A stretch of 64,000 bases of DNA, taken from a virus. Below the pieces are notes generated by a model. That model saw nothing but the letters and a program-made list of their open reading frames with translations, made no database searches and had not been told where the DNA came from. The position numbers were made by a program, and so were the translations under genes. The stretch is taken from the IMG/VR virus record IMGVR_UViG_3300018080_000116, positions 64,001 through 128,000 of that record, one strand, 5' to 3'. Of the stretch, positions 27,115 through 57,000 are shown in pieces. How positions within the stretch are numbered: the stretch's first letter is position 1; the number at the start of each line of letters is the position of its first letter.

Positions 27115-27344
27115 CAGATGTATTCCTCGATGATCTTGAGAACAGCCTTGATGTCGTCACCAGCCAGATCCAGTGTGGTTTCGCCTATCAAGAACTGAGC
27201 TTCGTCGGGGAAATATTCTTCCCCGTCATCGGTTTGCAGGGGGCCGTAGTTGTCTCGGAACACCTTGTCAGCATGTTGAAGCTTCTCTTGGATTATCCTG
27301 ACAATAACAGGCGGCATGAATTTAGGCACGACGACCCCTTTCAT
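27114..27344 (-). CDS. hypothetical protein
   Basis: coupled ORF; start uncertain. Confidence 0.6.
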   Translation of the reverse strand: MKGVVVPKFMPPVIVRIIQEKLQHADKVFRDNYGPLQTDDGEEYFPDEAQFLIGETTLDLAGDDIKAVLKIIEEYI

Positions 27345-28176
27345 TCACGTTCACGGGTGGCATCAATTCCAGGCGGAACGTCTTCGTGTTGAGATACATG
27401 GGCACTTCTGGATGTGCGCCTTTCCAGCGATTCTTCAATACGCAGCATCGAAACACATGGGTATTCCAAGAAACGGGAGTGTGGTCATAACGCATTTGGA
27501 GAACAACCGAAGGCATGTAGGCCAGCGGGCGATAATCCACAGCCGCCACCCCGAACTCATCATTCAATTTTTGTGTTGTAATCGAAAGAACAATGGCACA
27601 ATCGTGATCGTATGCCATGCCAACCAGTTGATGCAGCGTGTCCATCCTGCGTTTGGCTCGATAGTTGTAGGGCGTCTCCCCAGTTTGATACCAATTTCGG
27701 AAAGGAAGGGTTCCGAAGCTCTCGTCGAAAAGGATGTCGTGATTGCCCAACGCCCGATGCCAATTAGACTCGACATCTTGAGGCATGTATGAGGCGGGCA
27801 GCAGAGAGTAATCACCAAAATAATCAGTGGGGTAATACCACAAGTGCCCCTCAAAAGGGAGCGTGTTGGCACCCCTGTGAGCCAACAGGTGGGCCGTGCC
27901 CTGTTCAGGCACAAATCCCGCAGAACTTTTCTTGGCGGCATTGAGTGCCATGGTTCGCATGAGAGCCGATTTGCCAGAACCGGCTTTGCCCATGACAACT
28001 GAGACGGTTCCTCGGCGAAGACCGCCTCCTAACGCCTCGTCGAGCATTGGAAATCCGGTTGTAATAAGCTGTTCATCCAGCTTGACGATCTTCTTTTTCT
28101 TTTCCGCCACCAGAAGCGTCGGTGCCGCCACAAACGTCCCGATCACTCCCAACATCTGCCGTCTGTTTAGATTCAT
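27322..28176 (-). CDS. Tat-signal + DnaB/RecA-like ATPase domain
   Basis: MNLNRRQMLG; TGFPMLDEALGGGL; Walker A GKAGSGKS; ILFDE; LKNRW. Confidence 0.75.
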   Translation of the reverse strand: MNLNRRQMLGVIGTFVAAPTLLVAEKKKKIVKLDEQLITTGFPMLDEALGGGLRRGTVSVVMGKAGSGKSALMRTMALNAAKKSSAGFVPEQGTAHLLAHRGANTLPFEGHLWYYPTDYFGDYSLLPASYMPQDVESNWHRALGNHDILFDESFGTLPFRNWYQTGETPYNYRAKRRMDTLHQLVGMAYDHDCAIVLSITTQKLNDEFGVAAVDYRPLAYMPSVVLQMRYDHTPVSWNTHVFRCCVLKNRWKGAHPEVPMYLNTKTFRLELMPPVNVNERGRRA

Positions 28177-28781
28177 TGCAAGTTCTCCCAGTGTGCTTCC
28201 ATGCGAAAGCTGCCCTTCTCGCACATGAAGTCCATGCGGTCAATGTAGGATCGAGGATGACCGCTCGCCCAATACCAATACGACGGGTAATCAACATGCG
28301 CCCACACATCGGCATCGGGAGAGCCATGAAGCGGACTGCCCTCCCATATGGCAAAGCCCCTCTGGCCCGACAGCCACAGGGTAGCATCTGGATTTTCTCG
28401 CAGATGATAGAAATTCCCCTTCCCCTCTTTCCACGCAGGCTTAAAGGCCATCATGTGGGAGATTGTGAAAGGGTGGGCCATGACCCACTTCACCGGGCCT
28501 TTTTCTTTCCAAATGATCTCGCACAAATGCCAGTAAAACCCTTCAATGCGTTCGTTCACCAACAGATGTTCGGACTTGACATTGCCGTAGTGTAAATGCT
28601 TGGGCGCATCATGCAGCATGTCGAACGTCCGCACATCATGCTGGGGAATATGTCCCGGTTCGGGTTCCAGGATCTTTACTTCGTGTCTTCCTGGCTTGAG
28701 GGGAAGAAAAGCAGAAGCAGGCAAGACCACTGCGGCTCCCGCCGCAGTGGTCATTTTCAAAAAGTCCCTTCGATTATGCAT
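28173..28781 (-). CDS. Tat-signal hypothetical protein
   Basis: MHNRRDFLKMTTAAGAAVVLP. Confidence 0.8.
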   Translation of the reverse strand: MHNRRDFLKMTTAAGAAVVLPASAFLPLKPGRHEVKILEPEPGHIPQHDVRTFDMLHDAPKHLHYGNVKSEHLLVNERIEGFYWHLCEIIWKEKGPVKWVMAHPFTISHMMAFKPAWKEGKGNFYHLRENPDATLWLSGQRGFAIWEGSPLHGSPDADVWAHVDYPSYWYWASGHPRSYIDRMDFMCEKGSFRMEAHWENLQ

Positions 28782-29283
28782 GGGGTCTCCTTTTTTGCTG
28801 TGCGGTCATAATGCAGACGTTGTTTTCCATGGCGACCCTTCTCCACATTTCCATTTCGGAGGGGAGTTCTCTCAAGTCAGAGAAAGACAGGGACTTCACG
28901 ACATCTCGCTTGGTCATGGGTTGACCAGCGATCAAAAGTCTGGCTTCGGGCCATGTGGCTTTTGCCACAGCAACCTTTGATACCAGATTGCGGGGCCCGT
29001 AGATGAACCAGACCTTCATGGGGTAGCTCATGTTCTCGTCGGCTTCGATGGAATCTTCTACCGCTCTCATAAAATCCCATTCCCGTTCTCGGTCTCTGAA
29101 GATCATTGGAACCCGAACGAGATCGGTTCCATCACCTTTGGCATCGATTTGACAATCATTGCTTTGTGTGGAAACGTAGTAGATTTCGCTCGCCTGTTTC
29201 ACTGGCGTGGCGAAAGAGAGGGGCAAGACCACTGCGGCTCCCGCCGCAGTGGTCGTTTTCAAAAAGTTTCTTCGGTTAATCAT
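28774..29283 (-). CDS. Tat-signal protein with DnaB-like C-terminal motif
   Basis: MINRRNFLKTTTAAGAAVVLP; AMENNVCIMTAQQKRR; GGAGG RBS. Confidence 0.75.
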   Translation of the reverse strand: MINRRNFLKTTTAAGAAVVLPLSFATPVKQASEIYYVSTQSNDCQIDAKGDGTDLVRVPMIFRDREREWDFMRAVEDSIEADENMSYPMKVWFIYGPRNLVSKVAVAKATWPEARLLIAGQPMTKRDVVKSLSFSDLRELPSEMEMWRRVAMENNVCIMTAQQKRRPHA

Positions 29284-29452
29284 TGTTTCCTCCAAACGAA
29301 TCCGGTTCGTTCACATCGAATGCCCGCCCGAGTCCACACGATTCTATCGCAGTTCTCAAAGGATCGCACGGTGTTTCTTTTAGATGGTGCGTCCTTGTGA
29401 GCCACATGAGGGTCGTATGCCCTCTGAACAGGCGGCGCTTGTCGTGGAGCAT

Positions 29453-29665
29453 TCATTTTCGAGGGTCCGGTAGAAGGTACATGGGCCACAAGATCGCCAG
29501 CCCGGCACATATCGCTGCTTTGCCCCAGTTGATACCGATGCCGGGCTCCCACCAGCGTCCGAATTTATGATCGGGCTGGGCAAACATCAAGATAAAGCTC
29601 GTGGTCCATCCAATCAAGTAGACTGTGAAGAGGGTAGAGATGATCCATCCGATGATTGCAATCAT
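29453..29665 (-). CDS. small two-TM membrane protein
   Basis: hydrophobic profile. Confidence 0.65.
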   Translation of the reverse strand: MIAIIGWIISTLFTVYLIGWTTSFILMFAQPDHKFGRWWEPGIGINWGKAAICAGLAILWPMYLLPDPRK

Positions 29666-29719
29666 GTTAATCTCAGTTTTGCAAAAAGGCTACCCCGATT
29701 TTGTAGGTCTTTTTGTCCA

Positions 29720-30082
29720 TCAGTCTTTTACCTCTCTATACAGGCTTTGTTTCAGCCGCTTCCACTGCCCGCCGATATTATTTGCGTGTATGGAATGAAG
29801 CCCCTGAAAAAGGTTGACGGTGCTATCAGTGCGAACGAACACGCACACTTGGGTTCCCCCTTCTTCTGTCCTCCACAAGTACCATTCCCCCAGATCGGTC
29901 GGACACCGAGACCAGTTTTCTCGATCTCGTTTTTCCTCAGCTTGGATCTGGATGTCCATCAAGAGGGATTCAGCGGCTTGCAGGGTGGCAAAGCTGCCAT
30001 CTGAATGGCGTATCTCTAGCGGATTCTCACACTCAACTGTCCACCCTTCGGACATCAATAGTTCGATCATATTGTCATCCAT
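29720..30082 (-). CDS. hypothetical protein
   Basis: GGAGG RBS before MDDNMIE. Confidence 0.65.
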   Translation of the reverse strand: MDDNMIELLMSEGWTVECENPLEIRHSDGSFATLQAAESLLMDIQIQAEEKRDRENWSRCPTDLGEWYLWRTEEGGTQVCVFVRTDSTVNLFQGLHSIHANNIGGQWKRLKQSLYREVKD

Positions 30083-30219
30083 TGTCATCCTCCGTAATGA
30101 AGTTGCTTTCCCACCCTTCATGGTACGTTCCGTTGGCATCGTAGCCCTTGACGTACCAGTCGGCGGCGTACATTCCGTAGTGCTCTTTGGTCCGGGATAC
30201 AACCCGGACGAGGACAACT

Positions 30220-30423
30220 TTAGTCGTTTGGCCCATGGCTTGCCACACCCCTTGTTTGGCGTTCCTGGATGACTTCCACCATCCGAATCCAATCCCATTG
30301 TAGGTTCGGGCTGCATCGGATCTCGGTGAACTTAATCATGGCTTCCTGATCGGAATCGGCCTCAAACCGTGTGTAGAGTTTTTCTGGGATGTCATGTCGG
30401 GCGTGATAGACTTCGTATTTCAT
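30220..30423 (-). CDS. hypothetical protein
   Basis: ATGA overlap. Confidence 0.65.
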   Translation of the reverse strand: MKYEVYHARHDIPEKLYTRFEADSDQEAMIKFTEIRCSPNLQWDWIRMVEVIQERQTRGVASHGPND

Positions 30424-30734
30424 GTTTTCTTGTGTCTTGTAATGTCGAGTAGGTACAGGAATAGAACAATAACGCCAAGGATCAAAGCCACTATGATGGC
30501 GGCTGCGAACAAAGTCCCAAGAAGGAGGGCAAAACCACCAATGATAGTCCCATCATTAAACTCCCACGCCAACTCCGGTGTCCCCCACAACCAGTTGAAG
30601 GCGGTTGTGGTGGGGCCGACTATTTGTCTCCAGCAGGAGAGCAGCAGCATGATTGGCTTGCCGAAGATGGCCAAGACAACGCATGTCATTGTCACATAAA
30701 CCAACAGTCGTCCGGTGGTGTATTGCTTCAACAT
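30420..30734 (-). CDS. membrane protein
   Basis: several hydrophobic segments. Confidence 0.6.
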   Translation of the reverse strand: MLKQYTTGRLLVYVTMTCVVLAIFGKPIMLLLSCWRQIVGPTTTAFNWLWGTPELAWEFNDGTIIGGFALLLGTLFAAAIIVALILGVIVLFLYLLDITRHKKT

Positions 30735-30973
30735 GACACAAATAAGGGTCCATTCGGTCCCACATATGCCCCAAGTGTGTTGAATTGAAAGTATTCAATG
30801 GCGTCTTCTTCGGTTGCGCCATCTTTCATGAGGATGTCAATGCATTTGATGCTGCTGTAGACGGCTCGACAGGGTTCACATGCGTTATGCGTAAACCCTA
30901 TGATGGCATCATCGAACCCATCGGCGAACAGGGCATCCTCATTTCTTTCTGCGATCTGTTCTTTTAGATTCAT
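30728..30973 (-). CDS. conserved phage hypothetical protein
   Basis: ADGFDDAIIG...AVYS..KCIDIL...EDAIEYFQFN..GAYVG motif. Confidence 0.75.
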   Translation of the reverse strand: MNLKEQIAERNEDALFADGFDDAIIGFTHNACEPCRAVYSSIKCIDILMKDGATEEDAIEYFQFNTLGAYVGPNGPLFVSC

Positions 30974-31016
30974 TCTTTTAATTTTGTTTTCTTTTCCCTA
31001 GTGCTTCCGATGGACA

Positions 31017-31050
31017 AACGCCCCGTGCCACCGGCACGGGGCGTTCTTTT
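31017..31050. terminator. stem-loop terminator (possibly bidirectional)
   Basis: AACGCCCCGTGCC/GGCACGGGGCGTT. Confidence 0.6.
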
Positions 31051-31073
31051 GATTGTGATTTAATCTGGCTTAT

Positions 31074-31307
31074 TTACCAAGCCAGTACGACGCCATCCCC
31101 TCGTCGGATAATCTCAAAGCCCATTGTCTTGAGAGCGGGCCAGATTTTTCCTTCTGCCATGCCTTTTGGGGGCAATGGGAGGGAGATGTTTCGCAGCGGA
31201 GAGATGAATCGGTTCCTTCCCGCTCGCTCAATTTCACGAGCCCTTAGGGTAATCTCGGAGACATACCGGCTGGCTTCCATTCCTTTTTCCTTGTTTGCCC
31301 CTGTCAC
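31074..31307 (-). CDS. hypothetical protein
   Basis: ORF track. Confidence 0.55.
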   Translation of the reverse strand: MTGANKEKGMEASRYVSEITLRAREIERAGRNRFISPLRNISLPLPPKGMAEGKIWPALKTMGFEIIRRGDGVVLAW

Positions 31308-31310
31308 GCC

Positions 31311-31772
31311 CTACTTCTTCACGACGTACTTGGTTCCTTCCACGACGATCCATTCCATGGTCCTGAGATCGACTTGACGCATTTGGGGACCGGTTTCGAC
31401 CAGTTCTTCCACCTGGGCGTAGCCCGTGTCGTTGGTGGCGAGGAATCGGCAGATCATGTTACGGTCGGAGCCGTCTTTCTTGACGAATTGGATCTGGATG
31501 GGTTTGTTGGGGCTATCCTTGAGGATGCCGATGATCTTGGTTCGGCTGAGGGTGACTTCTTCTTCAACGAAGTTGCCTGAGAACCCTTTTTGGATCAGTG
31601 GTTCGCCTTGGACGGTGAACATCTGGTCTTGTTCGATGTTCTTGACGACGAGGCACAGGTCTCCGTCTTTGTTTTTTACTTCCTCCACGATGGTGTAGAA
31701 GTGAAAGGCGACGACATCGCCTTTTTTGACTTTGGTGGGATCGAGTTCATTGATTACTTTGTCTTCGTTCAT
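31311..31772 (-). CDS. conserved phage hypothetical protein
   Basis: AAGGA RBS; QFVKKDGSDR...VDLRTMEWIVVEGTKY. Confidence 0.75.
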   Translation of the reverse strand: MNEDKVINELDPTKVKKGDVVAFHFYTIVEEVKNKDGDLCLVVKNIEQDQMFTVQGEPLIQKGFSGNFVEEEVTLSRTKIIGILKDSPNKPIQIQFVKKDGSDRNMICRFLATNDTGYAQVEELVETGPQMRQVDLRTMEWIVVEGTKYVVKK

Positions 31773-31791
31773 TGGTTTTCCTTTCTCCTTG

Positions 31792-32346
31792 TTAATCGGT
31801 AAGAGCGTTCAATTCTTCCGGCCATTTTGATTTTCCGCTTATCGCAATATCGGCCAGATCACCCAGGAGATCCCATTGGACGTTGAAGGTGTCACCTTCT
31901 CGGAGGTACGTGTCCAGTTCTCGGAAAGATCTCAACACCAGAGACTCTCCATCTGGAAAGGGGCTTTTTTTATAGAACAGTTGGAGGGACAGGCGGGACA
32001 CGTGAAAGAGAGAGTCACGGGCAACGAAGTGGCCCGTGACTCTGAAGGTTGCGTCTTCGTAGACGACTTTAGTGTCATCCAGGATGTAGCAAGCAGTTGC
32101 GGGCTTGCCGAGGTGGATCATTTGTCTTGAGCCGACCGAGCGTCTGCCCGTGATGTCCATGAAAGCCGTGAAGCTTTCGGCCAGTCGTTGTTTGGCGTCA
32201 TCGAGTGATGAGTGGGAGACGACGAGTCGATCTTTGGGCGGCTCGTCGATACCGAAGTTATCGTCAGTGAGCAGCGAAAAGGGGATGAATGCTGCGGATG
32301 CCCCAGCGGCGGCTGTTTTCAGGAAGTTCCTGCGGGTGTGCGACAT
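31792..32346 (-). CDS. Tat-signal protein, possible virion-structural-protein-like domain
   Basis: MSHTRRNFLKTAAAGASAAFIP; DATFRVTG...YLREGDTFNVQWD. Confidence 0.75.
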   Translation of the reverse strand: MSHTRRNFLKTAAAGASAAFIPFSLLTDDNFGIDEPPKDRLVVSHSSLDDAKQRLAESFTAFMDITGRRSVGSRQMIHLGKPATACYILDDTKVVYEDATFRVTGHFVARDSLFHVSRLSLQLFYKKSPFPDGESLVLRSFRELDTYLREGDTFNVQWDLLGDLADIAISGKSKWPEELNALTD

Positions 32347-32479
32347 TATTAACTCCGTCTAATAATGGAATCGGAGAAACGAAGAGCGACTGCGGCATCC
32401 TGCCGCAGTCGCTCTCTCCCCATGCGAGGCTTTACAATCCTTATGCCTCCCCTGCCACAACGTCCCATGTTGTGGACTT

Positions 32480-32884
32480 CTACTGGCTAGATCCTTCTGC
32501 CTCGTTTTCACCTTGGGGGTTGAGCAACTCTTCCTTGCTTCTCCATGCTTTGCGAAGTTCGATCTTACTCATCCCGGCCCATTTGTCAATACAGGTTTGG
32601 TGTTGCTCGTCGGTGAGTCGCCCTTCTTCTTTTGCGGTGTTGGCCCAAGCAGTCAGGCTTGTTTTGTATTGTTCCTTGGCCATTTCGTTGAAAACGATTT
32701 GCGTTGTTGTTTCCTGAAAGCCGGTGGGTGGGTGTGCGATGAATTCTTCACCGTCTGCGGCTTGGCCCATTTCGTCGATCTGGGCGAGATCATCATGGGG
32801 AGCTTCATCGGGCGCAATCTCGGGCTGGGGTTCTTGGCAGCCAACGAAGAGGACAAAGGCTAGGAGGGGCAGCAGGCGTTTCAT
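32480..32884 (-). CDS. lipoprotein
   Basis: MKRLLPLLAFVLFVG|C lipobox. Confidence 0.75.
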   Translation of the reverse strand: MKRLLPLLAFVLFVGCQEPQPEIAPDEAPHDDLAQIDEMGQAADGEEFIAHPPTGFQETTTQIVFNEMAKEQYKTSLTAWANTAKEEGRLTDEQHQTCIDKWAGMSKIELRKAWRSKEELLNPQGENEAEGSSQ

Positions 32885-33038
32885 TGGTTTTCCTTAGACA
32901 TCCGTGGGCTTGGAGGGTATTGATTACGTGGTCGGCGGCAGTATCAGTGTCCATGCCTGATACATCAATTTTGAGTCCTATGTCAATGGCGTTTCGGAGG
33001 GCGGCGATGATTTCGGCTCGGGCGGTTTCATACTGCAT
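32805..33038 (-). CDS. hypothetical protein
   Basis: ORF track; overlaps neighbours. Confidence 0.45.
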   Translation of the reverse strand: MQYETARAEIIAALRNAIDIGLKIDVSGMDTDTAADHVINTLQAHGCLRKTNETPAAPPSLCPLRWLPRTPARDCAR

Positions 33039-33382
33039 GATCTTTCACCATAATACATGTAAACATTTTCATAATACCAATCAATGGTGAACGCCAGGAA
33101 GACACAATGTTCCGGGCAGTTCTCTTTTATAGCTTCGGGCAGCGAGATGTATTTGCTGCGAAGAACGTCTTTGGTTTTGGTCTTTCCAAACCATCCCTCA
33201 ACCTCTTCTTGACACACAACGAAATCCTTCCACACGAGGATTTCGCCAGTCCCCTCGCCTGTGGCCACCTTTTTTTTGACGACGTAGACACGTTCGAGGC
33301 TAGTGATGTCGAACGAGACGAGGGCGGCGGCATTTTGGGCGGCTGTTGCTGCGGCGGGTTGTGGCACGGGTTTACCTAACAT
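32978..33382 (-). CDS. hypothetical protein
   Basis: start near stop of upstream gene. Confidence 0.55.
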   Translation of the reverse strand: MLGKPVPQPAAATAAQNAAALVSFDITSLERVYVVKKKVATGEGTGEILVWKDFVVCQEEVEGWFGKTKTKDVLRSKYISLPEAIKENCPEHCVFLAFTIDWYYENVYMYYGERSCSMKPPEPKSSPPSETPLT

Positions 33383-33660
33383 GTTTCTTGTTTGACTCGC
33401 TCCAGGTTGGCGAGCAGGTTGTATTTGATGACCCAATGCAGGTGCGGATTATAGATGATGTCGTGTCTAATTTGCAAGTAGTCTTTTTCGTCTTGGCAAG
33501 CCATAATCCTCTTGCAGAATTCGCCATCGAGTGCCTTGATACCGAGTGGTGTTTTACAGCAGAAAAAGAAGCTGCTGTTGAGAGGTGCTTGATCGACGTA
33601 GACGGCATCCATGCCGCCGCAGTCTTCAAGCGTGAAGGGCAGGTCCATCTGGATCAACAT
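33376..33660 (-). CDS. hypothetical protein
   Basis: start overlaps upstream stop. Confidence 0.55.
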   Translation of the reverse strand: MLIQMDLPFTLEDCGGMDAVYVDQAPLNSSFFFCCKTPLGIKALDGEFCKRIMACQDEKDYLQIRHDIIYNPHLHWVIKYNLLANLERVKQETC

Positions 33661-34223
33661 CCGTCTTGCACCTTTGAGATTGCGTGGACTCCAAGCAGTT
33701 TTACATTCTTTGACACGACAGTGACATATCGCTCTTCTTGGCAGGGGGTGACATCGAAAAGTTCTCTCTCGGTGTCGGCTTGAACGGCGGTGCGGAAGAC
33801 AATATCTTTGGGCATGCCTCTTTTGGGCAACACCAATTCCCTGAGTCGTCGGCCTTCGGGGGTGTCGAGGCATTGGATGTCGCAAATAACCCAATCCTCG
33901 TGGGTGTCGCAATCATGAAGAAACTCGAATTTTGTAGCAACGTGAGAGATTTCGCTGAGACGGATCTTACAATCTTTGGGCATGCCGATTTGGCCCCACA
34001 CGCCTTCTTTGGGAATTCGGTCAACCATTTCCTCGATGGCTTTCCGGGGGTAAATGTTCATGTTCTTGGTGGGGCGGTCAAGAACAAGCGTCCGGACGTG
34101 TACGAGTTTGTCGGGAGGTTTCGCCACGGCTTCAACGACCGGTGGCGTGTCCTCGAAAGAGATGGGGATCGCTGCGGCGGATGCGGCTGCCGCTGCCGTT
34201 TTCAAAAAACTCCTTCTATCCAT
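33654..34223 (-). CDS. Tat-signal + catalytically degenerate T4 gp21-type prohead protease paralog
   Basis: MDRRSFLK; [40 protein letters not shown] match gp21-family blocks. Confidence 0.65.
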
Positions 34224-34422
34224 CGTCTTCCCGGCCTCCTTGATCTGCCCGCTGGATTGCTTCCCAGACTTCCCTGCGGTGAACGCACTTCCACTCCTTG
34301 GGAGCGTTGATGCCGAGTCGGACTTTATCGCCTCGGATTTCAACGACCACGATGTCAATTACGTTGTCGGGATCGGGGCCAACAACAATGCTTTCATTTT
34401 TCTTTCTGGACAACACGAGCAT
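34216..34422 (-). CDS. csrA: carbon storage regulator CsrA
   Basis: [15 protein letters not shown]...[16 protein letters not shown]...VHRREV. Confidence 0.92.
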
Positions 34423-34435
34423 GGGAATCTCCTTT

Positions 34436-35071
34436 TTAACAGAGTTCGTTAATGAGAGCGTCCTTCAGTTCTCCATCGAGCTTCAGGGGTTCGCCAAGGG
34501 GTTGGAAACCACACACATGAACGGCGTAGAATTCGTCAAGGGCAGCTTCGTCAAAACCACGGAAGCAATCAATCATTTCGCCGAAATACAAGTCCATCGT
34601 AAGCAGTTCCCAACCGCTCTTCGTGAACTGACTTCCAATAGATACTGGATGAACGTCGGCGAGACATTCTTGTCTGTTGTTGGCGAAGTCCCAGAGCGTT
34701 ACGATCCTGGAATCAACAACATAGTCCAGCTTTCCACCTTCTCGCTTAAACGGCGTGGGCTTCGACCAATCCCATAGATCTTGTGACAGAACTTTGGCGT
34801 CCTTGAGAGTGAAAGTCAGCCGCAATGATCCGACGAGGCCCCGTGCATCCCCATTGAAGCGCCGGTAAGTCCAAAAGAAATTGGGAATCCAATTGATGCC
34901 TTCGATGTGAAGTCCCAGTTGGTCGTCACGACCATAAACGTCGCCGTACTTGGTAATGGGTTTGGGTTTCGGCTTTGGAAGAACGGGTTCGTAAGAAATC
35001 AGCGGAGCCACAATCGGCAATGACAGAGCGGCGGCAGTGTTCCTCAAAAAGTCACGTCTTGTGGCGATCAT
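34436..35071 (-). CDS. Tat-signal + possible tail-tube (gp19-like) domain
   Basis: [10 protein letters not shown]; LTFTLKD...LWDW; IVTLWD...LADVHPVSI...LTMDLYF. Confidence 0.6.
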
Positions 35072-35191
35072 CTTTCTTTCTCCTCTCATGGAACTTGGAA
35101 ACATCGAAATCAATTTTGACTCGATGGTTCTTGCGCAAAACAATCACTCCCGACCTGCGGTCGGAAGTGATTTTGATGACTTTCTTGTTTT

Positions 35192-35365
35192 TCATTGCCC
35201 CACGGCCTTAATCAGATCGGGCAGGCTTGAAGAGAAACCCGCAAGCAGGAAACCAACAAACAGGAACCAACCCCATCCTTCCTTTTCTTTCACGGCCAAG
35301 AAGGCGGCAACGATGAAGCAGGTGATGGACGGTAGTAGGGACAGGAATAAAACTAATAGGGCCAC
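35192..35365 (-). CDS. small two-TM protein
   Basis: TAAGGAG RBS + GTG start. Confidence 0.65.
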   Translation of the reverse strand: MALLVLFLSLLPSITCFIVAAFLAVKEKEGWGWFLFVGFLLAGFSSSLPDLIKAVGQ

Positions 35366-35375
35366 GATGTTCTCC

Positions 35376-35927
35376 TTAACAGATGGCGGTCGGTGCGGCA
35401 CAACGGGGGTGAAGGTATATTCCTTCGACCTTTTGTAGAGTGGATTCGGGAATGACCCCAACATTGATCCACAGTTGGTTTTTGAGCGTGCGAACCAAAA
35501 CCAACTTAACCGCTCCATAGCAAACCCAATGTTCGTCGTCGATTCGTCTCTCGTAACAAACAGCATCGCTTTTCCGGAGGAACGCTTTGATGTTTTTCTC
35601 GTAGAATTCAATGTCGGTTGGCTCGCCCGTGGCGAAGTCGGTCCCACGGACACCTTCCCAGGGGGTTTCGTCAAAAAGCACATCCCCGTTGATGAGGTAT
35701 GGCCCCATCATTTCGATCACAGGCAGGAGTCCAGCGGGAGTCATCTCCACCCTAATGACACTGCCGGGTTTGGAAGGTTCGCCCCTTTTCAACTCCTCAT
35801 ACTCCATATCCCACTTCCAATCGGGGTATCTCAATCGGTCGGTATCGGTATAGGCTTCGGCGGCGACGGGTATGGCAGCACCAGCAAGTGCGATTGGGGC
35901 GGCTTTGAGAAAAGTGCGTCGTTCCAT
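35376..35927 (-). CDS. Tat-signal hypothetical protein
   Basis: MERRTFLKAAPIALAGAAIPVAAEA (AxA site); GGAGG RBS. Confidence 0.8.
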   Translation of the reverse strand: MERRTFLKAAPIALAGAAIPVAAEAYTDTDRLRYPDWKWDMEYEELKRGEPSKPGSVIRVEMTPAGLLPVIEMMGPYLINGDVLFDETPWEGVRGTDFATGEPTDIEFYEKNIKAFLRKSDAVCYERRIDDEHWVCYGAVKLVLVRTLKNQLWINVGVIPESTLQKVEGIYLHPRCAAPTAIC

Positions 35928-35938
35928 GGATTCCTCCA

Positions 35939-36523
35939 TCAATGTTCATGAAAACACATATCACAAGCGTCCTGCCAACAATAATGACCGCAAGCCTCGC
36001 AGTCATTTGGGCACTCAAACATGCCCACAGCGATTGGAAGTGAGTTAATCGCCGCAACTGGAATCCCCATTGTAGGTTGTGGGAAATCCGTGTCAAGAGA
36101 TTCTCGCAGAATCATGTTGGGCAGTTCAGCCAACTTCAAGAGGGGTTTAAGAAGATCCCTCCGTCGAGTGGTTGACCGGAATAGCGTATCAGGTGTATTC
36201 CTGACAATCTCTATGACTTTTTCAACATACTCTTCGGAGTAGTAATCCCCTCCGGAGTGCCAACGAAAGAAATCTGGCTGGAATCTTTTCAATTCGGCTA
36301 GTACCTTCTCTACGAAGTCTTTCCGCTTGGATGCACGGTAGCGTGCAAGGGTTGCCTTGCGCACCGAGTCCATTTTGAAATTATTCCGGCGAGCGTAGCA
36401 GGCTGGCTTGCCATTACGGCCCTTGAGGCACCAACTCGTCGGCTTGCAGGTTAGATGTGGTGGGAGATTGAAGATGTAGACTTTCGCCCCCATCTTGCTG
36501 TTGCCCTTGATGAGCAGATTCAT
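35939..36523 (-). CDS. Gp88-family protein
   Basis: FNLP...TC...C......CYA; FRWHSGGD; terminal CPNDCEACGHYCW. Confidence 0.75.
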   Translation of the reverse strand: MNLLIKGNSKMGAKVYIFNLPPHLTCKPTSWCLKGRNGKPACYARRNNFKMDSVRKATLARYRASKRKDFVEKVLAELKRFQPDFFRWHSGGDYYSEEYVEKVIEIVRNTPDTLFRSTTRRRDLLKPLLKLAELPNMILRESLDTDFPQPTMGIPVAAINSLPIAVGMFECPNDCEACGHYCWQDACDMCFHEH

Positions 36524-36770
36524 CGTACTTCTCCAATTCGTATTCCACTACGTCAGACCAAGTAAGCTCGCCGAGATCGTTAGCGTATCTGATGCGGTAT
36601 TTGTAGCCTTTGGCCCAGCCATTGTAGCTGAAACTATTGACAATGGTAGCCGTTTTGTCCAGTGCGGGAACATAAACTATTTCCCCGCAGACAAACTTGT
36701 TGTTGGGCTCGTTATCGGCTGGAGCGCAACCGAAAATCAACAAAATCAAGATGAACAGCGACTTTTTCAA
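36414..36770 (-). CDS. lipoprotein
   Basis: AGGAG + TTG start; LFILILLIFG|C; 3' end overlaps next gene. Confidence 0.55.
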   Translation of the reverse strand: MKKSLFILILLIFGCAPADNEPNNKFVCGEIVYVPALDKTATIVNSFSYNGWAKGYKYRIRYANDLGELTWSDVVEYELEKYDESAHQGQQQDGGESLHLQSPTTSNLQADELVPQGP

Positions 36771-36783
36771 TCCGGGGCTCCTT

Positions 36784-37509
36784 TCAGACGGATTCATAGC
36801 GGGTGCAACAGTGTGGCCGAAAATCATAGACTGCGAAGGGCTCGAACTTGTGTGGATCGGATCGAGGGGGAAACTCAATTTCTCTAGTCAAGAACATACG
36901 ACCCCAGCCCCACTTACAACGACAGCTTGATCCGCTGGGCCACGTGATCTCTTTGCCCTCCGGGTGAAAACAAACAACCCTGTTTTCGTAAGGCAGGATT
37001 ACCTCACGCATGTTGGTTTGCGAAACGAACTTCCCATGGTCTTTGTATTCACTCCAGCGACTATGGACATACCCTTCGATGGCCGAGTCAAGCCAGTCGA
37101 AAAGATACTTGTCATCCCCACCATCTTTATGCAGTTTGCGGAAGTAGGAGCGGATTCTTCCCCAGTGAGAGGGAACCACGGGCAGGCCATAGGCTTCGTG
37201 TAATTTACACCACTCACACTCGGGCACCAACTCTGCATAGTCCTTGCCCGGCATGCGATGCAATCGAAGGTTTTCTTCCGTGCAGGCATCCACCCAGAAT
37301 GTTCCCCGGCAGAGTTTGCAGCGGTACTTAGCATCCGGGCCGTCACCGAACATGAACTCAAAGTGTCTCCATCCGGACACCGATCCGGACACTTTGTCCG
37401 GTTTCTTGTCCGGATTGGCCTTAATAATCGGTGTATTAAGTCCTAGCGGAACGACACAAGTAGCGGCGGCTGTCGCCGCCGATACTTTAAGGAAGTCACG
37501 TCTACGCAT
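36784..37509 (-). CDS. Tat-signal Cys-rich protein
   Basis: MRRRDFLKVSAATAAATCVVP; CKLC and CEWC. Confidence 0.8.
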   Translation of the reverse strand: MRRRDFLKVSAATAAATCVVPLGLNTPIIKANPDKKPDKVSGSVSGWRHFEFMFGDGPDAKYRCKLCRGTFWVDACTEENLRLHRMPGKDYAELVPECEWCKLHEAYGLPVVPSHWGRIRSYFRKLHKDGGDDKYLFDWLDSAIEGYVHSRWSEYKDHGKFVSQTNMREVILPYENRVVCFHPEGKEITWPSGSSCRCKWGWGRMFLTREIEFPPRSDPHKFEPFAVYDFRPHCCTRYESV

Positions 37510-37518
37510 TGTAAGCTC

Positions 37519-37749
37519 CTATGCTGCTGCGGCCTGCACCGCCATGATGAACCGTTGGTCTTCTTCAAGCATCATTTCTTTAACGGCTCGTTCCCTCATC
37601 AAATCAAGTAGGTCTTGGTGGGCTTGACCAAGACGGCGGACCTTGGGTTGGGGTGGAACTGGATCTTTGGGCTGCGGCGTGCAACCCAAGGGAACAACCG
37701 CCGCCGCCATGCTGGCGGCGACGGTTTTTAAAAAACTTCGACGGTTCAT
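37519..37749 (-). CDS. Tat-signal lipoprotein-like small protein
   Basis: MNRRSFLKTVAASMAAAVVPLG|C; TTAGATA box at 37781-37787. Confidence 0.75.
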   Translation of the reverse strand: MNRRSFLKTVAASMAAAVVPLGCTPQPKDPVPPQPKVRRLGQAHQDLLDLMRERAVKEMMLEEDQRFIMAVQAAAA

Positions 37750-40909: not shown

Positions 40910-41133
40910 ACTTCCTCCAGTGATTCTATGGCGTTTTCCATGACATTAGCACCCATGGTTGCCGACATGTTGCGAATGGTCATCTGGAATTGATTGGCGT
41001 CAAAATCGTCCCGCACTTCACTGGCGGGACGAATGATAATGCCCACAAACGTTTCTCGACGGGCCAACTCATTGATTAGCTCTTCCGAGGTGGCCAGTTC
41101 CAATGCTTCATCTATCATTATGCCCTCACTCAA
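40906..41133 (-). CDS. hypothetical protein
   Basis: coupled ORF. Confidence 0.65.
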   Translation of the reverse strand: MSEGIMIDEALELATSEELINELARRETFVGIIIRPASEVRDDFDANQFQMTIRNMSATMGANVMENAIESLEEV

Positions 41134-41740
41134 AAATCATGTCTACAGCAATTATGGTCTTGAACGTAGGAACCCCTATGTGGTCCACCAAAAGTTGTTT
41201 CTTTGCCTCAACTGCCGCCATATACCATTCGGCATGGCTCTTCTCATGCAGCTTTTTCAAAAAGTATTCCGGATCTTCGTGGCCGCAATGCTTGGCGAAT
41301 TTCTTAAAATGCCTTTTCTGAAGGGTGTCGGCATGTTTCGTGTGCGACTTCAATTCCTCTATCTTGCCCCAAGAGCCTGCCGCCATGTCATGCACCATGA
41401 CGGTTGCGTTAGTGTCAGCATACCGATAACCCGGAGTGCCAAACCCCAACAAAAAACTTCCACAACTCATGGCTTTGCCGACAGCAATAGTCGCCACCGG
41501 AAGAGATGCGTTTTCAATGTCGGCCAACATAGAGAGTAGACTGTAAACATACCCGCCGAATGAATCAATTAAAACTGGGACTACAGGCTGTCCGGTGTTG
41601 TGGGCCTTCCTCATTTCTTCCGAAAACTTCTTGGCCGCATATTCATCAAAATCATTCACTCGGATCACGATGGGTTCATCAACTAGTTCGGAATGCTTCC
41701 CCTTCACACGAGGGTCCACCTCTAGCAAACTTTTCATCAT
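41126..41740 (-). CDS. clpP: ClpP-family peptidase S14
   Basis: IDSFGGYV; GKAMSCG (Ser); VMVHD (His); EWYMAAVEAK. Confidence 0.85.
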   Translation of the reverse strand: MMKSLLEVDPRVKGKHSELVDEPIVIRVNDFDEYAAKKFSEEMRKAHNTGQPVVPVLIDSFGGYVYSLLSMLADIENASLPVATIAVGKAMSCGSFLLGFGTPGYRYADTNATVMVHDMAAGSWGKIEELKSHTKHADTLQKRHFKKFAKHCGHEDPEYFLKKLHEKSHAEWYMAAVEAKKQLLVDHIGVPTFKTIIAVDMIFE

Positions 41741-51040: not shown

Positions 51041-54000
51041 ATGGCCCAACTCCAGGATATAACAGGACGCCTAGTCACAATGGAAGGAGAACTCTCCGAG
51101 ATGACTGGCGTTCTGCGCCAAATGCTTGCCAAGCAAGACATGGGTGCGGCCATTCCCTACATGGAAGAAGAGAAAACCAAGAATGAGGAGAGGAATACAA
51201 AGCTCGATGAAATTCGAGACATCATGCAAACCCTCAGCGACGACTTCAAGGAAGAGATGGACAATGCCGAGGATTATGCCGCCCAAATCAAAGAAGTAGT
51301 TGAAAGTCTAAGGGAAGCAAAAGGAACTGCTGGTGAAGCCACACCTGCGGCACCCACAGCGGCACCAACTGCTACCATGGGTTTCGATAACCTCGTTGGT
51401 TCGATGAGTGACGTACTCGGCAAAGATCAGGCTAAAATAGCCAAGTCGCTTACCACAGAAGAAAAATTATTGACGGCCATAGCCGCTTCCTCTAGGGCCA
51501 TTGAATCGCAAATCAGAACGCTAACAAGTGCCGCCACCACCAAAGGCTCAATCCACACGCAGGTGGACGGTTCAGATGTCATCAATGTCACCAATTCACT
51601 TCTTGAAGCCCAGATCAAAGAGAGATCTGGCAAGGACATCAAGGTAGATGTAGCACAGATTGGCGGGGGCGCTGGCGGGGGGACTGGCGGGGGTAGCGGT
51701 CCTGGTTCTGTGTTCCCAACTGACGGAGATGCAGCAGCGGCAGGCGAGACGGCAGGCAAAACTTATCGTGAACACTTTTACAAAGCCGGTATTTTCGGCA
51801 CCATGGCTGCTGCCCTGGCAGGCTTAATCAAAAAATTCAGTCCCATAGAACATTTATTCAAGGGCGTGGTTCAAGACGAACTTGAATTCATGCAAAACAT
51901 GCGTGCCACGGCTTTCGAGGTAGAAGGCATCTCGGCCTCCACACGAGGGCTACAAGAAGAATGGCAGCAAACTGGACGGGTGGTTGCACGCACGGGCATG
52001 AACCTGACCGAATTCCAGACACAGTACGTAAAAAACTTGCGTGCTGGCGTTATTTCTCAAAAGGCAGCCCTCGATGTTACCAAGACAGGGCTACATCTAT
52101 CCCAGATGATCGGTGCGAACCATGAGCAGACTTCAGATACACTCATGAATTGGCACAAAACCATGGGCATGAATCAGAATCAAATGGCCCAGTTCAGCAG
52201 ATCACTCCAGGATGTTGCACGACTAACCGGCGTGACTGGCGACAACTTAATGGAAGCCGTCAAAGCATCTGAAGAGCTTGTAAAGAATATGAGAAATGCA
52301 GGTCAGTTGACCGCAGCAGCCGCCGCCAACCTCACATCCACCATGGCTTCCGCCCAAAAACTTGGAGTGGCTGAAGGTGCGCAAGAAATAATGAAAGCTC
52401 TTACGGGCACAAATGCTTTGCTGCAAGAAACCAGTAAAGAAACGCAAACCTTCCTGTTTAATGCAGGTGTGCATGCCGGGAGGTTTGGAGATGTGTGGTC
52501 TGGAACCATCAGCCAAACCAAAGCAGGCATGAAAGATCTCGCTGGGGGTATGAAGGGGTTTGTCGAGAGTGTCATGGGGCAAACCATGGACGATTTCGAC
52601 AAACTCAGTAAAGAAGAAAAAGCGAAGCTGAACTTCATTGTCAAAAATGTCACCGGTAAATCCATCGATGAAGCTCGAAGAATTATTGAGTCCATCGAAG
52701 AAGGTGCCAAGACATATGGAGATCGAATATCAGACATCAACAAACGACTAAGGGAGGAAACGCTTACCCTCGAAGAGAGGAAGAAACTAGAAGAAGATAG
52801 ATTGGCCATGCAAATTGGCGGGGGCTTTGAATTCCTCACTGCATTCGACGAAGCCGCAAAGAAGGGGCTTGACATGAGTGCAGCCGTACAAGACGCCATG
52901 GCCAACAACGAGGATTTGGCAGCAAGCATGGGTTCTATGGGCCTAAACATAGACATGATGGGCCCAACCATGGCGCTTGAAAAAGCTGCACTTTTCACTG
53001 CTGAAAGGCTGAAGGAGGCGGGCGGTGCCGACTTTACACCACAAATCCAACGAGCGTTGGATACCGGTGATACCCAAGCCATGCGTGAAGTCTTATCCGA
53101 TATGAGTGCTGCCCAACAAGAGTTGGCCATGGACACCAAGAAGGGCCTCGATCCCATGACTGAGATGGCCCACAACTTCAACAAGCTGAACGAAACCGTT
53201 CGTGACTTCACGGGGCCAGCTTTAAGGTACATGTCTGGAATGATGATGTGGTTGGCGGTGATCGCTGGCGGCATTGGTTCCGTGTGGACTGCCGCTCTTG
53301 GCTTCGGCGAACTGAAAAAAGGTTTAGCCGGATTGTTTGGAATGGGCGGTGGTGCTGGCGATATGATGGAAGGGATGGACGAAGCAGGAATTGATGATGT
53401 ATTTAAGGCTGGCTTGGCCAAAGCGGGCGAATACGTGCCCCAAAGTATCAAGGATATGTTTGGTGCAGGACTCGGCAAGGCCAAAGATTTGATTGGTGCG
53501 GTCATTCCTGGCGCATTTGCAGACAGTGTTGCGGATGCTGGATTGGATACCGTAGGAGACGTGGTGGGGGATGCTGTTGCTGGCGGTGTGTCCGACGCTT
53601 TGACAGCTTCGACGGGAAGCATCACCACAGGCTTGGGTAGCGAGCTTGCAGATGGTATGACCAGCACACTTACCGCAGGTTTGGATGATGTGGGCGATCA
53701 TTTCACAAGCACTATTGTTGGAAACTTCGATGATGCTCTAGGTGGCGTGAACATAGAAGATGTGGGCTTGCTTGACCAAGCAGGCGACATCCTGGGGGGC
53801 GGGCCAGAAGGCGGAAAGGCACCTTCGTTCGATTGGGGTGGCATCGAAAAAATTGGCGAGGAATTGAAGAAAGCCGCCCCAACCCTCATCAAAGCAGCTA
53901 TTGGCCTCGCAATCGCTGCTGCGGCTGTAGTTCTACTCATCAAAGTCTTGCAGGCTGTTGGAATTGGCCCCAAGGAAGCAATGGAAGGGGCCATCACCAT

Positions 54001-57000
54001 TGCGGTCATTCTGGGAACCGTTGCTTTGATTGCTGGTGCTGTTTACGCCTCTGTACACGCATTGAAAGCCGCCAGCAAAATGTGGGGAGTAATTAAAGCC
54101 TCTTACAAAGACATGTTGATCGGTGCGGCTGTCATTGGGTTGATGGGACCGGCCATCGTTCTTTTGGCAACAGCAATCGTATTTGTTTGTAAAGAAATCA
54201 TGGGTGCATTTGGCATGGACGCTTCCACTGTAGCCAAAACCGCCATCGACATCGCAGCCATACTTGGTGCTGCCGCTGCTATTACAATTGCGGCAGCAGC
54301 AGGCGTTGCTGCAATTATGGGTGTTGGCGCTGCGCTTGGCTTGCTAACTGGGCCACAAGCGCTTGCAGCGCTTGCGGCCTTGGGTATTGGTGTAGCGGCC
54401 ATTCTTCTTGCTGTCCCGCTTTTGCTCACTCTTGCGGCAGGAGTTGTAAGGATCGCTCAGGGTGTCATGAGTATGATGGGCGTCGATGCCGCTGTAGCTG
54501 TTGAAGTTGGCAAAAATGTTGCCGCCCTTTTGGGTGCCACCGCACTCATCATTATCGGAACCGCAGCAGGACTTGCGGCTCTTTGGGGAATTGGCAAGGG
54601 CATAATGGCAATGTTTACCGGAGGCTTGGCACTTAAAACCTTGATTGAACTAGGCGTAGGAATAGCTGCTGTGTTAATTGCGGTCCCAATCTTACTCACG
54701 ATTGCCGCAGCGGTCGTGAAGATTGCCCAAGGCGTATTGGGCATGATGGGTGTTGATGCTGGCGTTGCCATGGAAGTCGCCAAAAATGTTGGCGGATTAC
54801 TTATAGCAGCAGCAGGCATTATCACAGGGGTGGGACTCGGACTTGCCGCCCTTTGGGGCATCGGCAAAGGCGTATTGATGCTTGTGAGCGGCCCACAATT
54901 CCTAGCAACACTGTTGGCCCTTGGGGTTGGAACCGCAGCCGTTTTGCTTGCCACACCAATACTTCTTGGGATTGCCGCTGCTGTAGTTAAGATAGCCCAA
55001 GGCGTACTAGGTGCAGCAGGAGTAGACGCTGCTACTGCTGCACAGGTAGGTGAAGATGTAAGTGCTTTGTTAAAAGCAGCAGCAGGCATTGTGATTGGAG
55101 TGGGTGCAGGTCTTGCCGCCCTGTACGGAATGGGTTGGGCCATGGTCACCTATCTGGCTGGCCCTCAGGCTCTAGTTGCCCTTGGCATGATGGCCTTGGG
55201 CGCTGTTGCGGTTAGGTTGGCCACCCCAATCATGTTGGGCATCGCAGCCGATGTTGTAAACTCTGCAAAAGAGATTCTGAAAGCAGAAGGAATGGATGCT
55301 GGCGCTGCCGCCAAAGTCGCTGAAGATGTTAAGGGGCTGTTGACGGCGACCGTTAAGATAGTCGCTGGTGTAGCTTCTGGAATTGCCCTTCTTACTGGAA
55401 TTGGCTGGGCACTTGGACTTTTGTCAGGCCCACTAGCACTAGGATTGATCCTCTCGCTGGCAGCCGGTGCGGCTGTGGTGAGATTGGTAACACCTATGTT
55501 GATTAAGTTTGCTGCCAGTCTACTTGACATATGCAAAGCGGCAGCAGGAGCCTATGTAGATCCCGCAGAGAGCCAAAAGGTGGTTGCGGCAATGGATGGC
55601 ATGGGTAAAGCAGCAAAAGCAATTGCCAATATGCTTGGGGCTTTTGTAAATGACATCGTGCCACTTACGCAAGGTTGGTTCCTTGGGTGGTTCGGCGCAT
55701 CTCCGCTTGACGAGCTAGATGATGCGATGCCCCAAGTAGAGGCAACCATTGATGTTTTAGCAAACTTTCTTGGTGATCTGATGCGAACGATGAGCGCCAA
55801 ATTCCCCGATGAAGGCCAACTCGCAGGATCTATCGAAATCATTAACAGCCTGGGGACCATGGCAAGCAGCGTAGCCGACGCCCTCGGGGTTGCCGCTGAA
55901 GAATTGCCTGATCTGACTGATGGTTGGTTCCTGGGTTGGTTTGGTGCATCTCCACTTGACGAACTGGCTGCATGCATACCTCAGATTAAGAGTAGCATGG
56001 ATATAATGTCCAAGTTCCTGGGTGAAGTAATGGTTGATTCCCTGGGCAACTTCCCCAGTATGGACAACATGACTCAGGGAATTGAGATCATCAAAAACAT
56101 GGGTGAGATGTCCACCAGCATATCAGCCGCCCTTGGTGAGGCAGCCGAGAAGTTGCCCGAGCTAACCGAAGGTGGATGGATACCATTCTTCTCCAGTTCG
56201 CCACTCGAAAAACTCGAAGAAGCTATTCCGGCTCTTACAGATGGCTTTGAAACGGTAGCCAAGTTCATGCGAGCGGTTATTGGCGTTACACACGATGTCT
56301 TTTCTGACCCAGATCAAGCCAAGAAAGATGTCGAATTGGTGACAGCCATTGGGACAGGTGCTACGGCGGTTGCTCAAGCACTTACAGTCTGTGGGAATGA
56401 CCTTGTGGAACTGACCGAAGACACAGGCTGGTTTGGCTGGGGCGATTCTGTAATCGAGCAGTTTGACGAAGCACGACCCGCTTTAAGAGACGCCTTCAAG
56501 TCGGTTGCTCGATTCATGAGAGATGTCATCACAATCGCCAAGGCGGAAATGGGCGACATTGAAAATGTGCAAGATGCCATCGACATTGTAAATGGCATGG
56601 GCACTATGGCTGGCAGTATCGCCAAAGCATTCTCGGTGATTGGTGAGGATCTTGTCCCGATGACTGAAGAGTCTGGCTGGGGCTGGTGGTCTGAAGAAGC
56701 CTTAACTAAACAACTGGAAGATGCAATCCCAGATCTTGAAGATGCCTTTGGCACCGTCGCTGGATTCTTGGGTACATGCGCAGAAGCCGTAATGAGCGAA
56801 TTCCCAGGAGAAGGCGAAGTTAAGACGGCTACGGATCTAATGACAGCACTCGGCCCAATGGTGGATGGTGTTGCCGATGCAATGAAAACCACATCCTTCG
56901 AGATGGTTCCCCTCGCTGGTTGGTCGGGCATTGAGAATTTAGAAGATGCCATCCCTGAATTGAGGATGTCATTCCGAACCATCTCAAGATTCTTGGGCGG

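Follow-up and report, generated by a model that had tools for sequence, protein, structure and literature searches.

Nine genes with twin-arginine leaders

The window analysed here is a stretch of 64,000 nucleotides, corresponding to bases 64,001–128,000 of a linear 138,192-bp viral contig from IMG/VR (record IMGVR_UViG_3300018080_000116). It holds nine small genes within 10 kb whose products begin with a twin-arginine (RR) motif and an uncharged, hydrophobic segment, resembling the signals that address proteins to Tat, the twin-arginine translocation pathway. All nine lie on the minus strand. These open reading frames had been listed in a first-pass annotation with starts at 28176, 28781, 29283, 32346, 34223, 35071, 35927, 37509, and 37749, all of which were confirmed, and they are designated T1 to T9 in this order (phages T4 and T5 are always named as phages below). 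The same annotation took the array to be phage-encoded, in agreement with the IMG/VR record and with a baseplate wedge subunit gene at contig positions 131,586–133,166 (phrog_219, E 6e-23). The fragment belongs to a very large uncultured tailed phage and, since CheckV puts the completeness of the contig at only 27%, the full genome may reach several hundred kb.

Most products of the array join the leader to a domain without recognizable relatives. This is the case of T2 (28173..28781, minus strand, as for all the following; 202 aa, leader RRDFLK, preceded by the Shine–Dalgarno sequence AAAGGAG), T3 (28774..29283, 169 aa, RRNFLK), T4 (31792..32346, 184 aa, RRNFLK), and T7 (35376..35927, 183 aa, RRTFLK), as well as T6 (34436..35071, 211 aa, RRDFLR), in which the motif is followed by 17 uncharged residues, a Pro/Lys-rich linker, and the orphan domain. 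T9 (37519..37749) is the smallest protein, with 76 aa, and comprises an RRSFLK leader that runs to a PLGC sequence, a Pro-rich linker, and one predicted helix. Altogether, six of the nine cargo domains (those of T2, T3, T4, T6, T7, and T9) are orphans to which no fold could be assigned. T8 (36784..37509, 241 aa, RRDFLK) holds a Pro/Lys linker and a domain with a CxxC...C...CxxC cysteine pattern. The remaining two have recognizable folds: T5 (33654..34223, 189 aa, RRSFLK) carries, after a linker, a domain with the fold of gp21 from phage T4 (Peptidase_S77), and T1 (27322..28176, 284 aa), the weakest Tat candidate, combines an RRQML leader and an EKKKK flank with a P-loop NTPase of the RecA/DnaB C-terminal fold.

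The leaders themselves are very uniform. The Tat consensus being S/T-R-R-x-F-L-K, eight of them read RRxFL[K/R], the exception being T1 (RRQMLG), and all nine match the TatP-style regular expression RR.[FGAVML][LITMVF] at residues 3–9, followed by 15–21 uncharged residues. Every gene starts with ATG, located 5–12 nt after a GGAG, AGGAG, or GGAGG Shine–Dalgarno motif. Translation had been assumed to begin at the RR-bearing Met and not downstream of it, which is borne out both by these start sites and by the orthologues of T1, T5, and T8, which share the same Met. The Ala-rich stretch attributed to the leaders is also present. It had been described as ending in Pro; more exactly, a Pro near its end marks the boundary between the hydrophobic (h) region and the c-region, a position where this residue is common in signal peptides.

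Two independent curated models of Tat signals, Pfam TAT_signal PF10518 (cut-off 22.7 bits) and NCBIfam TIGR01409 (cut-off 16.7 bits), recognize most of these leaders. The first is passed by T3 (31.9 bits), T2 (27.4), T5 and T8 (24.1 each), and T9 (23.3), with T4 (22.5) and T7 (13.6) below the cut-off and no match for T1 and T6. The second is reached by T3 (26.9 bits), T2 (26.3), T9 (21.3), T4 (20.8), T7 (16.9), T8 (16.7), and T5; T6 remains below it, with 12.9 bits, and T1 shows no match. Seven of the nine proteins thus reach the cut-off of one or both models, T6 is borderline, and T1 fails both. Nine Tat substrates, as initially described, are thus too many.

The concentration of these signals in a single region is equally clear. 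When the entire contig was scanned in six frames with PF10518, six matches above the cut-off and a weaker one were obtained, all of them inside this 10 kb. A detector built for this analysis, which requires a start codon, the RR regular expression, and a stretch of 13 or more uncharged residues whose hydropathy is positive, found all nine members of the array and gave no match in the remaining 128 kb. Applied to 982 kb from 80 other viral loci, it returned three matches, only one of them credible, and in 30 shuffled genomes it averaged 1.1 matches and never exceeded 4. The RR-leader pattern is real and goes far beyond chance.

In their best 10-residue stretch, the h-regions reach hydropathy values on the Kyte–Doolittle (KD) scale, KD(10), of 1.8–2.3, compared with 2.9–3.4 in the signals of two Sec-type lipoproteins encoded in the same gene string. 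This matches the established difference between both types of signals, the h-regions of Tat signals, uncharged over some 12–20 residues, being less hydrophobic than those of Sec signals. Cleavage sites of the AxA type were recognized by eye in T2 (ASA/F), T3 (SFA/T), and T7 (AEA/Y), and a lipobox-like PLG/C in T9, where the slash marks the bond that would be cut; no clear site was seen in T1, T4, T5, T6, and T8. Beyond the leaders, the nine proteins show no similarity: BLASTP and profile cross-searches confirmed that the mature parts are mutually unrelated, as had been noted, and only the leaders match each other.

Conservation, modularity, and cargo folds

Orthologues were found for three members of the array, with identities of 57–66% for T5, 50–58% for T8, and 42–48% for T1. 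In all three families the start Met is the same and the RR motif is invariant. Identity among orthologues amounts to 0.65–0.83 in the leaders versus 0.40–0.63 in the linkers; the leaders of T5 and T8 are conserved to the same degree as the mature domain, and that of T1 even more so (83% among four orthologues, compared with 48% for the remainder of the protein). A 10,682-bp contig from NCBI carries orthologues of all three, T1, T5, and T8, as does a 50,994-bp contig from ENA, indicating that the cluster is conserved as a unit. Proteins more distantly related to T1, whose annotation is that of a DnaB-like C-terminal domain, have no leader.

No close relative of the phage itself was found among cultured phages, against which tblastn gave no match for T8 and a Walker-A match only for T1, and no orthologous loci were found in IMG/VR, GTDB genomes, or JGI metagenomes with T2, T8, the T5 and T1 alignments, P0074, and P0060 as queries. 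A helicase of the phage retrieved distant phages only, and a host search with its epimerase gave only matches of 25–32% in four unrelated phyla.

In the adjacent genes T2 and T3, the DNA of the leaders is 80% identical across 69 nt, including an exact run of 32 nt, and is followed by unrelated mature parts. Together with the leaderless relatives of T1 and with the T5 family, which includes members with and without a leader, this agrees with the previous suggestion of a modular tag attached to diverse domains. In these comparisons, the leader behaves as a movable cassette, which would relocate folds of cytoplasmic or virion origin.

T5 is the cargo with the best defined structure. An AF2 model based on an alignment of 60 sequences reached a predicted local distance difference test (pLDDT) value of 87, compared with only 33 for a model from five sequences, and consists of a helix (residues 3–18), a low-confidence linker (19–39), and a compact domain (40–189). 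The family profile matches gp21 of phage T4 (PDB 5JBL) with an E value of 2.2e-11 over 124 positions, and Foldseek, with the T5 model as query, placed the same structure at the top (E 2.5e-5, template modelling (TM) score 0.50–0.57), followed by herpesvirus proteases including that of human cytomegalovirus. Despite sharing with gp21 the fold and the NxRxYP and G-x-x-G blocks, T5 exhibits clear differences from it: it is shorter (domain of ~125–150 aa), carries a Tat leader, and is not encoded in a head gene module. In addition, the alignment of a hidden Markov model to 5JBL shows that the catalytic His is replaced by Met (GxxGMP) and the catalytic Ser by Arg (FRTAG) throughout the family, whereas the true proteases of three IMG/VR loci (L012, L017, and L020) keep GELGHP or GEIDHP and SSRG or STRA. 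Because both catalytic residues are replaced, T5 is regarded as a relative of Peptidase_S77 by fold and not by enzyme activity.

This pseudoprotease family is widespread, and no functional name for it was found in the sources searched. With an E value of 1e-3 or better, a profile search of 1.84 billion representatives retrieved 276 clusters. Relatives of T5 are encoded in at least 505 IMG/VR loci, the short form with Met and Arg being common. The proteins of the family are small, with ~125–135 aa (P0060–P0208 and IMG/VR loci L001–L080, such as L001 7992–8381 and L003 9977–10369). An N-terminal RRxFL extension is present in 51 of the 152 representatives, 41 of which match PF03420 at E≤0.1, and 87 are short forms without it. 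On the best tree built from the domain only, the leader trait requires 15 changes (gains or losses), at least three of them on well-supported branches, versus 38.7 in shuffles. As a separate observation, the sole credible Tat-like N-terminus detected in the 982 kb of other viral loci (MSETTRRGILGLFGTAAATAVAAPLAASL..., L056 8141–8653, plus strand, IMGVR_UViG_3300025902_000014) belongs to a gene located ~1.3 kb upstream of one that encodes a gp21-like pseudoprotease without the tag.

T1 represents a different situation. Its profile aligns over positions 20–252 with the structures of RecA, DnaB, and RadA (E down to 1e-25 for DnaB), and the Walker A motif GSGKS (K69), E91, D151/E152, and the KNR motif are invariant in the four orthologues. 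Like the C-terminal domain of DnaB and other small ATPases of the RecA fold, T1 retains the whole RecA core, including the catalytic Glu and the Walker A, Walker B, and KNR motifs. Unlike them, it holds a conserved RR motif with a hydrophobic segment, shows a deletion of ~40 residues in the middle, and has no helicase N-terminal domain. Its hydrophobic segment is the strongest of the nine, and the only one that passes a Kyte–Doolittle value of 1.7 in a 17-residue window; the net charge is +4 after the segment (EKKKK) and +2 before it. The periplasm offers no supply of ATP to an active NTPase. Given the failure of both Tat models, the strong hydrophobicity, the EKKKK flank, and the intact NTPase residues, T1 is, with low certainty, probably a membrane anchor that leaves an apparently active NTPase domain in the cytoplasm.

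Regarding the other cargoes, the orthologues of T8 keep both the motif M[RH]RR[DE]FLK and the CxxC...C...CxxC cysteines, which are invariant and possibly form a metal site. T9 is possibly a lipoprotein routed by Tat. Atlas searches for T2 and T8 were uninformative (pLDDT 0.27 and 0.37). Several further assignments were considered and rejected: T8 as a relative of CbpC, based on a lone marginal match of the T8 profile in the PDB (E 4.8e-4); T9 as a major head protein, with a match of only E 0.041; and T3 as a remnant of DnaB, for which no relation was detected with the T1 profile. The idea that the cargoes are degenerate copies of the core proteins of the phage was likewise abandoned, as it would apply by fold only to T5 and T1, neither of which has a paralogue in the 138 kb. 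The Pfam models for gp21 and gp23 gave no match in the fragment.

Neighbouring genes

The RR genes are part of a packed minus-strand string, with overlaps of 4 nt between T2 and T1, 8 nt between T3 and T2, and 8 nt between the gene of a CsrA homologue and T5. Besides the nine, this string encodes two Sec-type lipoproteins, three small membrane proteins, the CsrA homologue, and a GP88-family protein. About 14 of some 24 genes would be directed to the envelope.

The first lipoprotein gene (32480..32884, minus strand, 134 aa) encodes a protein with the N-terminus MKRLLPLLAFVLFVGC and an h-region with a KD(10) of 2.94. The second (36414..36770, minus strand, ~118 aa) starts with TTG at 36770 after AAGGAG, reads (M)KKSLFILILLIFGC, and has the signal MKKSLFILILLIFGC, with a KD(10) of 3.39; it belongs to no Pfam family. 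The small membrane proteins are encoded on the same strand at 29453..29665 (70 aa, two hydrophobic segments read by eye), at 30420..30734 (104 aa, three hydrophobic segments, corresponding to three Kyte–Doolittle windows ≥1.8), and at 35192..35365 (~57 aa, two hydrophobic segments), the last one starting with GTG at 35365 after AAGGAG, just downstream of the stop codon of T7.

The CsrA-family RNA-binding regulator (34216..34422, minus strand, 68 aa, Pfam CsrA E 7.4e-20), whose gene end overlaps the start of T5, may control the translation of the module or of host genes. The gene for the GP88-family protein (35939–36523, minus strand, Pfam E 3.2e-24) is flanked by T7 and by the gene of the second lipoprotein. 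Window positions 31017–31045, in the gap between two minus-strand genes, contain a GC-rich palindromic hairpin with a perfect match of 13 bp, where termination or processing may divide the module into two transcription units; promoter- and terminator-like sites in general are not more numerous than expected from shuffled sequences. The Pfam family PspA_IM30 was not found in the fragment.

Other features of the contig lie outside the string. In addition to GP88, it encodes ArdC and a single open reading frame of 3,833 aa (window positions 51041–62542, plus strand), with no significant Pfam family (best E 0.005). A ClpP-family protein (window positions 41126–41740, minus strand) matches Pfam CLP_protease (E 1.4e-20) and also phrog_94, a head-maturation protease (E 3e-14), and could be either the real prohead protease or an accessory ClpP. 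The base composition is markedly split, with a G+C content of 58–64% at window positions ~6–20 kb and ~50% in the remainder (22000–64000 compared).

Probable routing of the proteins and possible meaning of the array

The explanation favoured here, and considered moderately probable, is that the string forms a phage module directed to the envelope, and that the Tat system of the host would route seven to eight of its proteins. The analysis demonstrates the RR motif, the true start sites, the conservation and clustering of the genes, the fold of T5, and the modularity of the leader; Tat dependence, cleavage, topology, and function are inferred. According to this model, the RR proteins would fold in the cytoplasm, be recognized by the TatBC receptor of the host, and be carried by TatABC across the inner membrane to its periplasmic side. 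Signal peptidase I would then release T2, T3, and T7 at their putative AxA-type sites, and T9 may be lipidated at PLGC, whereas T4, T5, T6, and T8 may remain attached through the leader and a flexible linker rich in Pro and Lys. In T1, the hydrophobic N-terminus would fix the protein to the membrane and leave the enzyme part in the cytoplasm. Tat is a plausible choice of route because the cargoes would fold, or bind metal, before transport.

The leaders share with bacterial Tat signals the S/T/N/D-R-R-x-F-L-K motif right after the start, the weakly hydrophobic h-region of 15–21 residues rich in Ala, Gly, and Thr, the Pro near the h/c boundary, and, in some members, a putative AxA site read by eye. 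They differ from them in their setting: these are phage genes, nine in 10 kb, and their products bear small orphan or phage-derived domains instead of cofactor-binding redox enzymes, with no dedicated chaperone or Tat component seen in the fragment.

Several observations weigh against this explanation. Neither curated model recognizes T1, whose intact NTPase would make no sense in the periplasm, and T6 scores below the cut-off. Four further leaders (those of T4, T5, T6, and T8) seem, by eye, to have no obvious AxA site, the orphan folds of six cargoes leave function unsupported, and neither TatA nor TatC was found in the 138-kb fragment. In the wider T5 family, the leaders defined by the regular expression are matched by PF10518 in only 10 of 51 cases (E≤0.1) and by TIGR01409 in four, and many of them read RRxFLxE(S/T), with Glu after FL. 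Since few of them pass the Tat models, the sorting of this family into tagged and untagged members depends in part on a tag that is loosely defined, and the family may mix true Tat leaders with another type of N-terminal extension.

The most serious alternative, although an unlikely one, is that the RR segments serve mainly to anchor the N-terminus in the membrane without being cleaved, whether Tat inserts them or not. The proteins would then be tethered to the inner membrane instead of being soluble in the periplasm, with T1 and perhaps others facing the cytoplasm. Rieske proteins are a known case of Tat signal anchors that stay uncleaved. The hydrophobicity of T1, the charge of its flanks, and its intact NTPase residues are all consistent with an anchor, as are T4, T5, T6, and T8, in which the absence of a clear AxA is accompanied by long Pro/Lys linkers that resemble tethers. 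However, T2, T3, and T7 have what look, by eye, like good ASA, SFA, and AEA sites, and eight of the nine h-regions, with the KD(10) values of 1.8–2.3 given above, are too weak and too short for typical transmembrane helices. Moreover, the charge balance in those eight, with RRxFLK before the segment, would place the domain outside.

It has also been considered that the leader is an address for the prohead or for a phage-made compartment and is merely similar to a Tat signal, which seems improbable. This idea draws on the prohead-protease fold of T5 and on the distant RRxFLxE(S/T) leaders, few of which pass the Tat models; this sequence recalls the LLIET N-terminus of gp21 from phage T4 and its LxE cleavage motif. 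A destination of this kind may hold for the wider T5 family, but it suits the leaders of the phage under study poorly. These fit the curated Tat models and are hydrophobic and Ala-rich, unlike the capsid-targeting sequences of phage T4. The capsid-type tags proposed in this same phage, those of a CCA enzyme (MKPEIPSFKQF...) and of a HAD phosphatase (MKISFREW...), are quite unlike the RR leaders, and the array adjoins lipoprotein and membrane-protein genes instead of head genes.

A third possibility, raised in the first-pass annotation, is that the array jams or occupies the Tat translocase of the host, blocking its own substrates. Many co-expressed Tat leaders could saturate the system, as DeLisa and colleagues reportedly observed in 2004 with over-expressed substrates in E. 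coli, and a Tat-tagged oligomeric ATPase of the RecA fold, of which T1 is an example, might in principle dock and yet not pass through. No evidence for saturation was obtained, and one strongly expressed substrate would suffice for it. The mature domains are diverse and individually conserved (42–66% across related phages, with invariant cysteines and motifs), which argues for selection on the cargo and not only on the leader, and makes jamming highly improbable. Finally, an artefact of chance or annotation, with open reading frames that are not genes or that start downstream of the RR motif, is supported by nothing but the general caution that an open reading frame alone does not prove a gene, and is practically negligible in view of the Shine–Dalgarno motif and ATG at every start, the same N-terminus in the orthologues of three families, the nine real matches against 1.1 in shuffled genomes, and the location in a packed gene string on one strand.

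For the few phage proteins known to reach the envelope, the routes are Sec signals, lipoboxes, or membrane helices. The use of the Tat route by bacterial phages was not found described in full-text literature searches, nor was an array of Tat leaders in a bacterial phage, in line with the first-pass annotation, which knew of none. Phage-encoded substrates are not mentioned in a 2026 review of the Tat system (PMC13673990). The closest viral case is that of the VP4-like spike proteins of haloarchaeal pleomorphic viruses, which carry predicted Tat signals (PMC3384331) and are likewise virus proteins predicted to reach the cell surface by means of the host Tat system. Those, however, are single structural proteins from viruses of archaea, hosts that secrete mostly by Tat, whereas here a bacterial tailed phage encodes an array of small non-structural proteins, adjoined by Sec-type lipoproteins.

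With respect to function, the likeliest guess for the cargoes would be a role in taking over or protecting the envelope, such as superinfection exclusion, during a long infection. Llp of phage T5 and Cor of lambdoid phages are phage envelope factors. Together with these two, Imm and Sp of phage T4, which act in superinfection exclusion (cited in PMC13128918), would provide the likeliest functional analogy, being likewise small phage products with an envelope destination whose genes lie among accessory ones. The known factors differ in using Sec signals, lipoboxes, or transmembrane helices, and no sequence similarity was found between them and the proteins of the array.

A bolder extension of this explanation, which is quite unlikely as a whole, would have a lineage of very large phages assemble a set of periplasmic proteins, in which a shuffling Tat cassette is grafted onto folds from its own cytoplasmic or virion machinery (the gp21-type protease fold without its catalytic pair, the RecA-fold NTPase, and the Cys-rich domain); once relocated, these would act in the envelope against competitors. 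A periplasmic pseudoprotease could, for instance, bind ejected proteins with gp21-type motifs from superinfecting phages similar to phage T4, which would amount to a novel form of exclusion, and the combination of an RR leader with an S77-like pseudoprotease, found in dozens of metagenomic clusters, would then represent a widespread unrecognised class of phage factors.

The leaders would be compact and easy to try in reporter assays. If the export is real, large phages would be shown to remodel the periplasm of their hosts with pre-folded proteins, and the array would constitute a natural case of leader shuffling that relocates cytoplasmic folds, with a bearing on the evolution of exported proteins. 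It would also provide a testable role for a widespread family of gp21-like pseudoproteases to which no function has been assigned.

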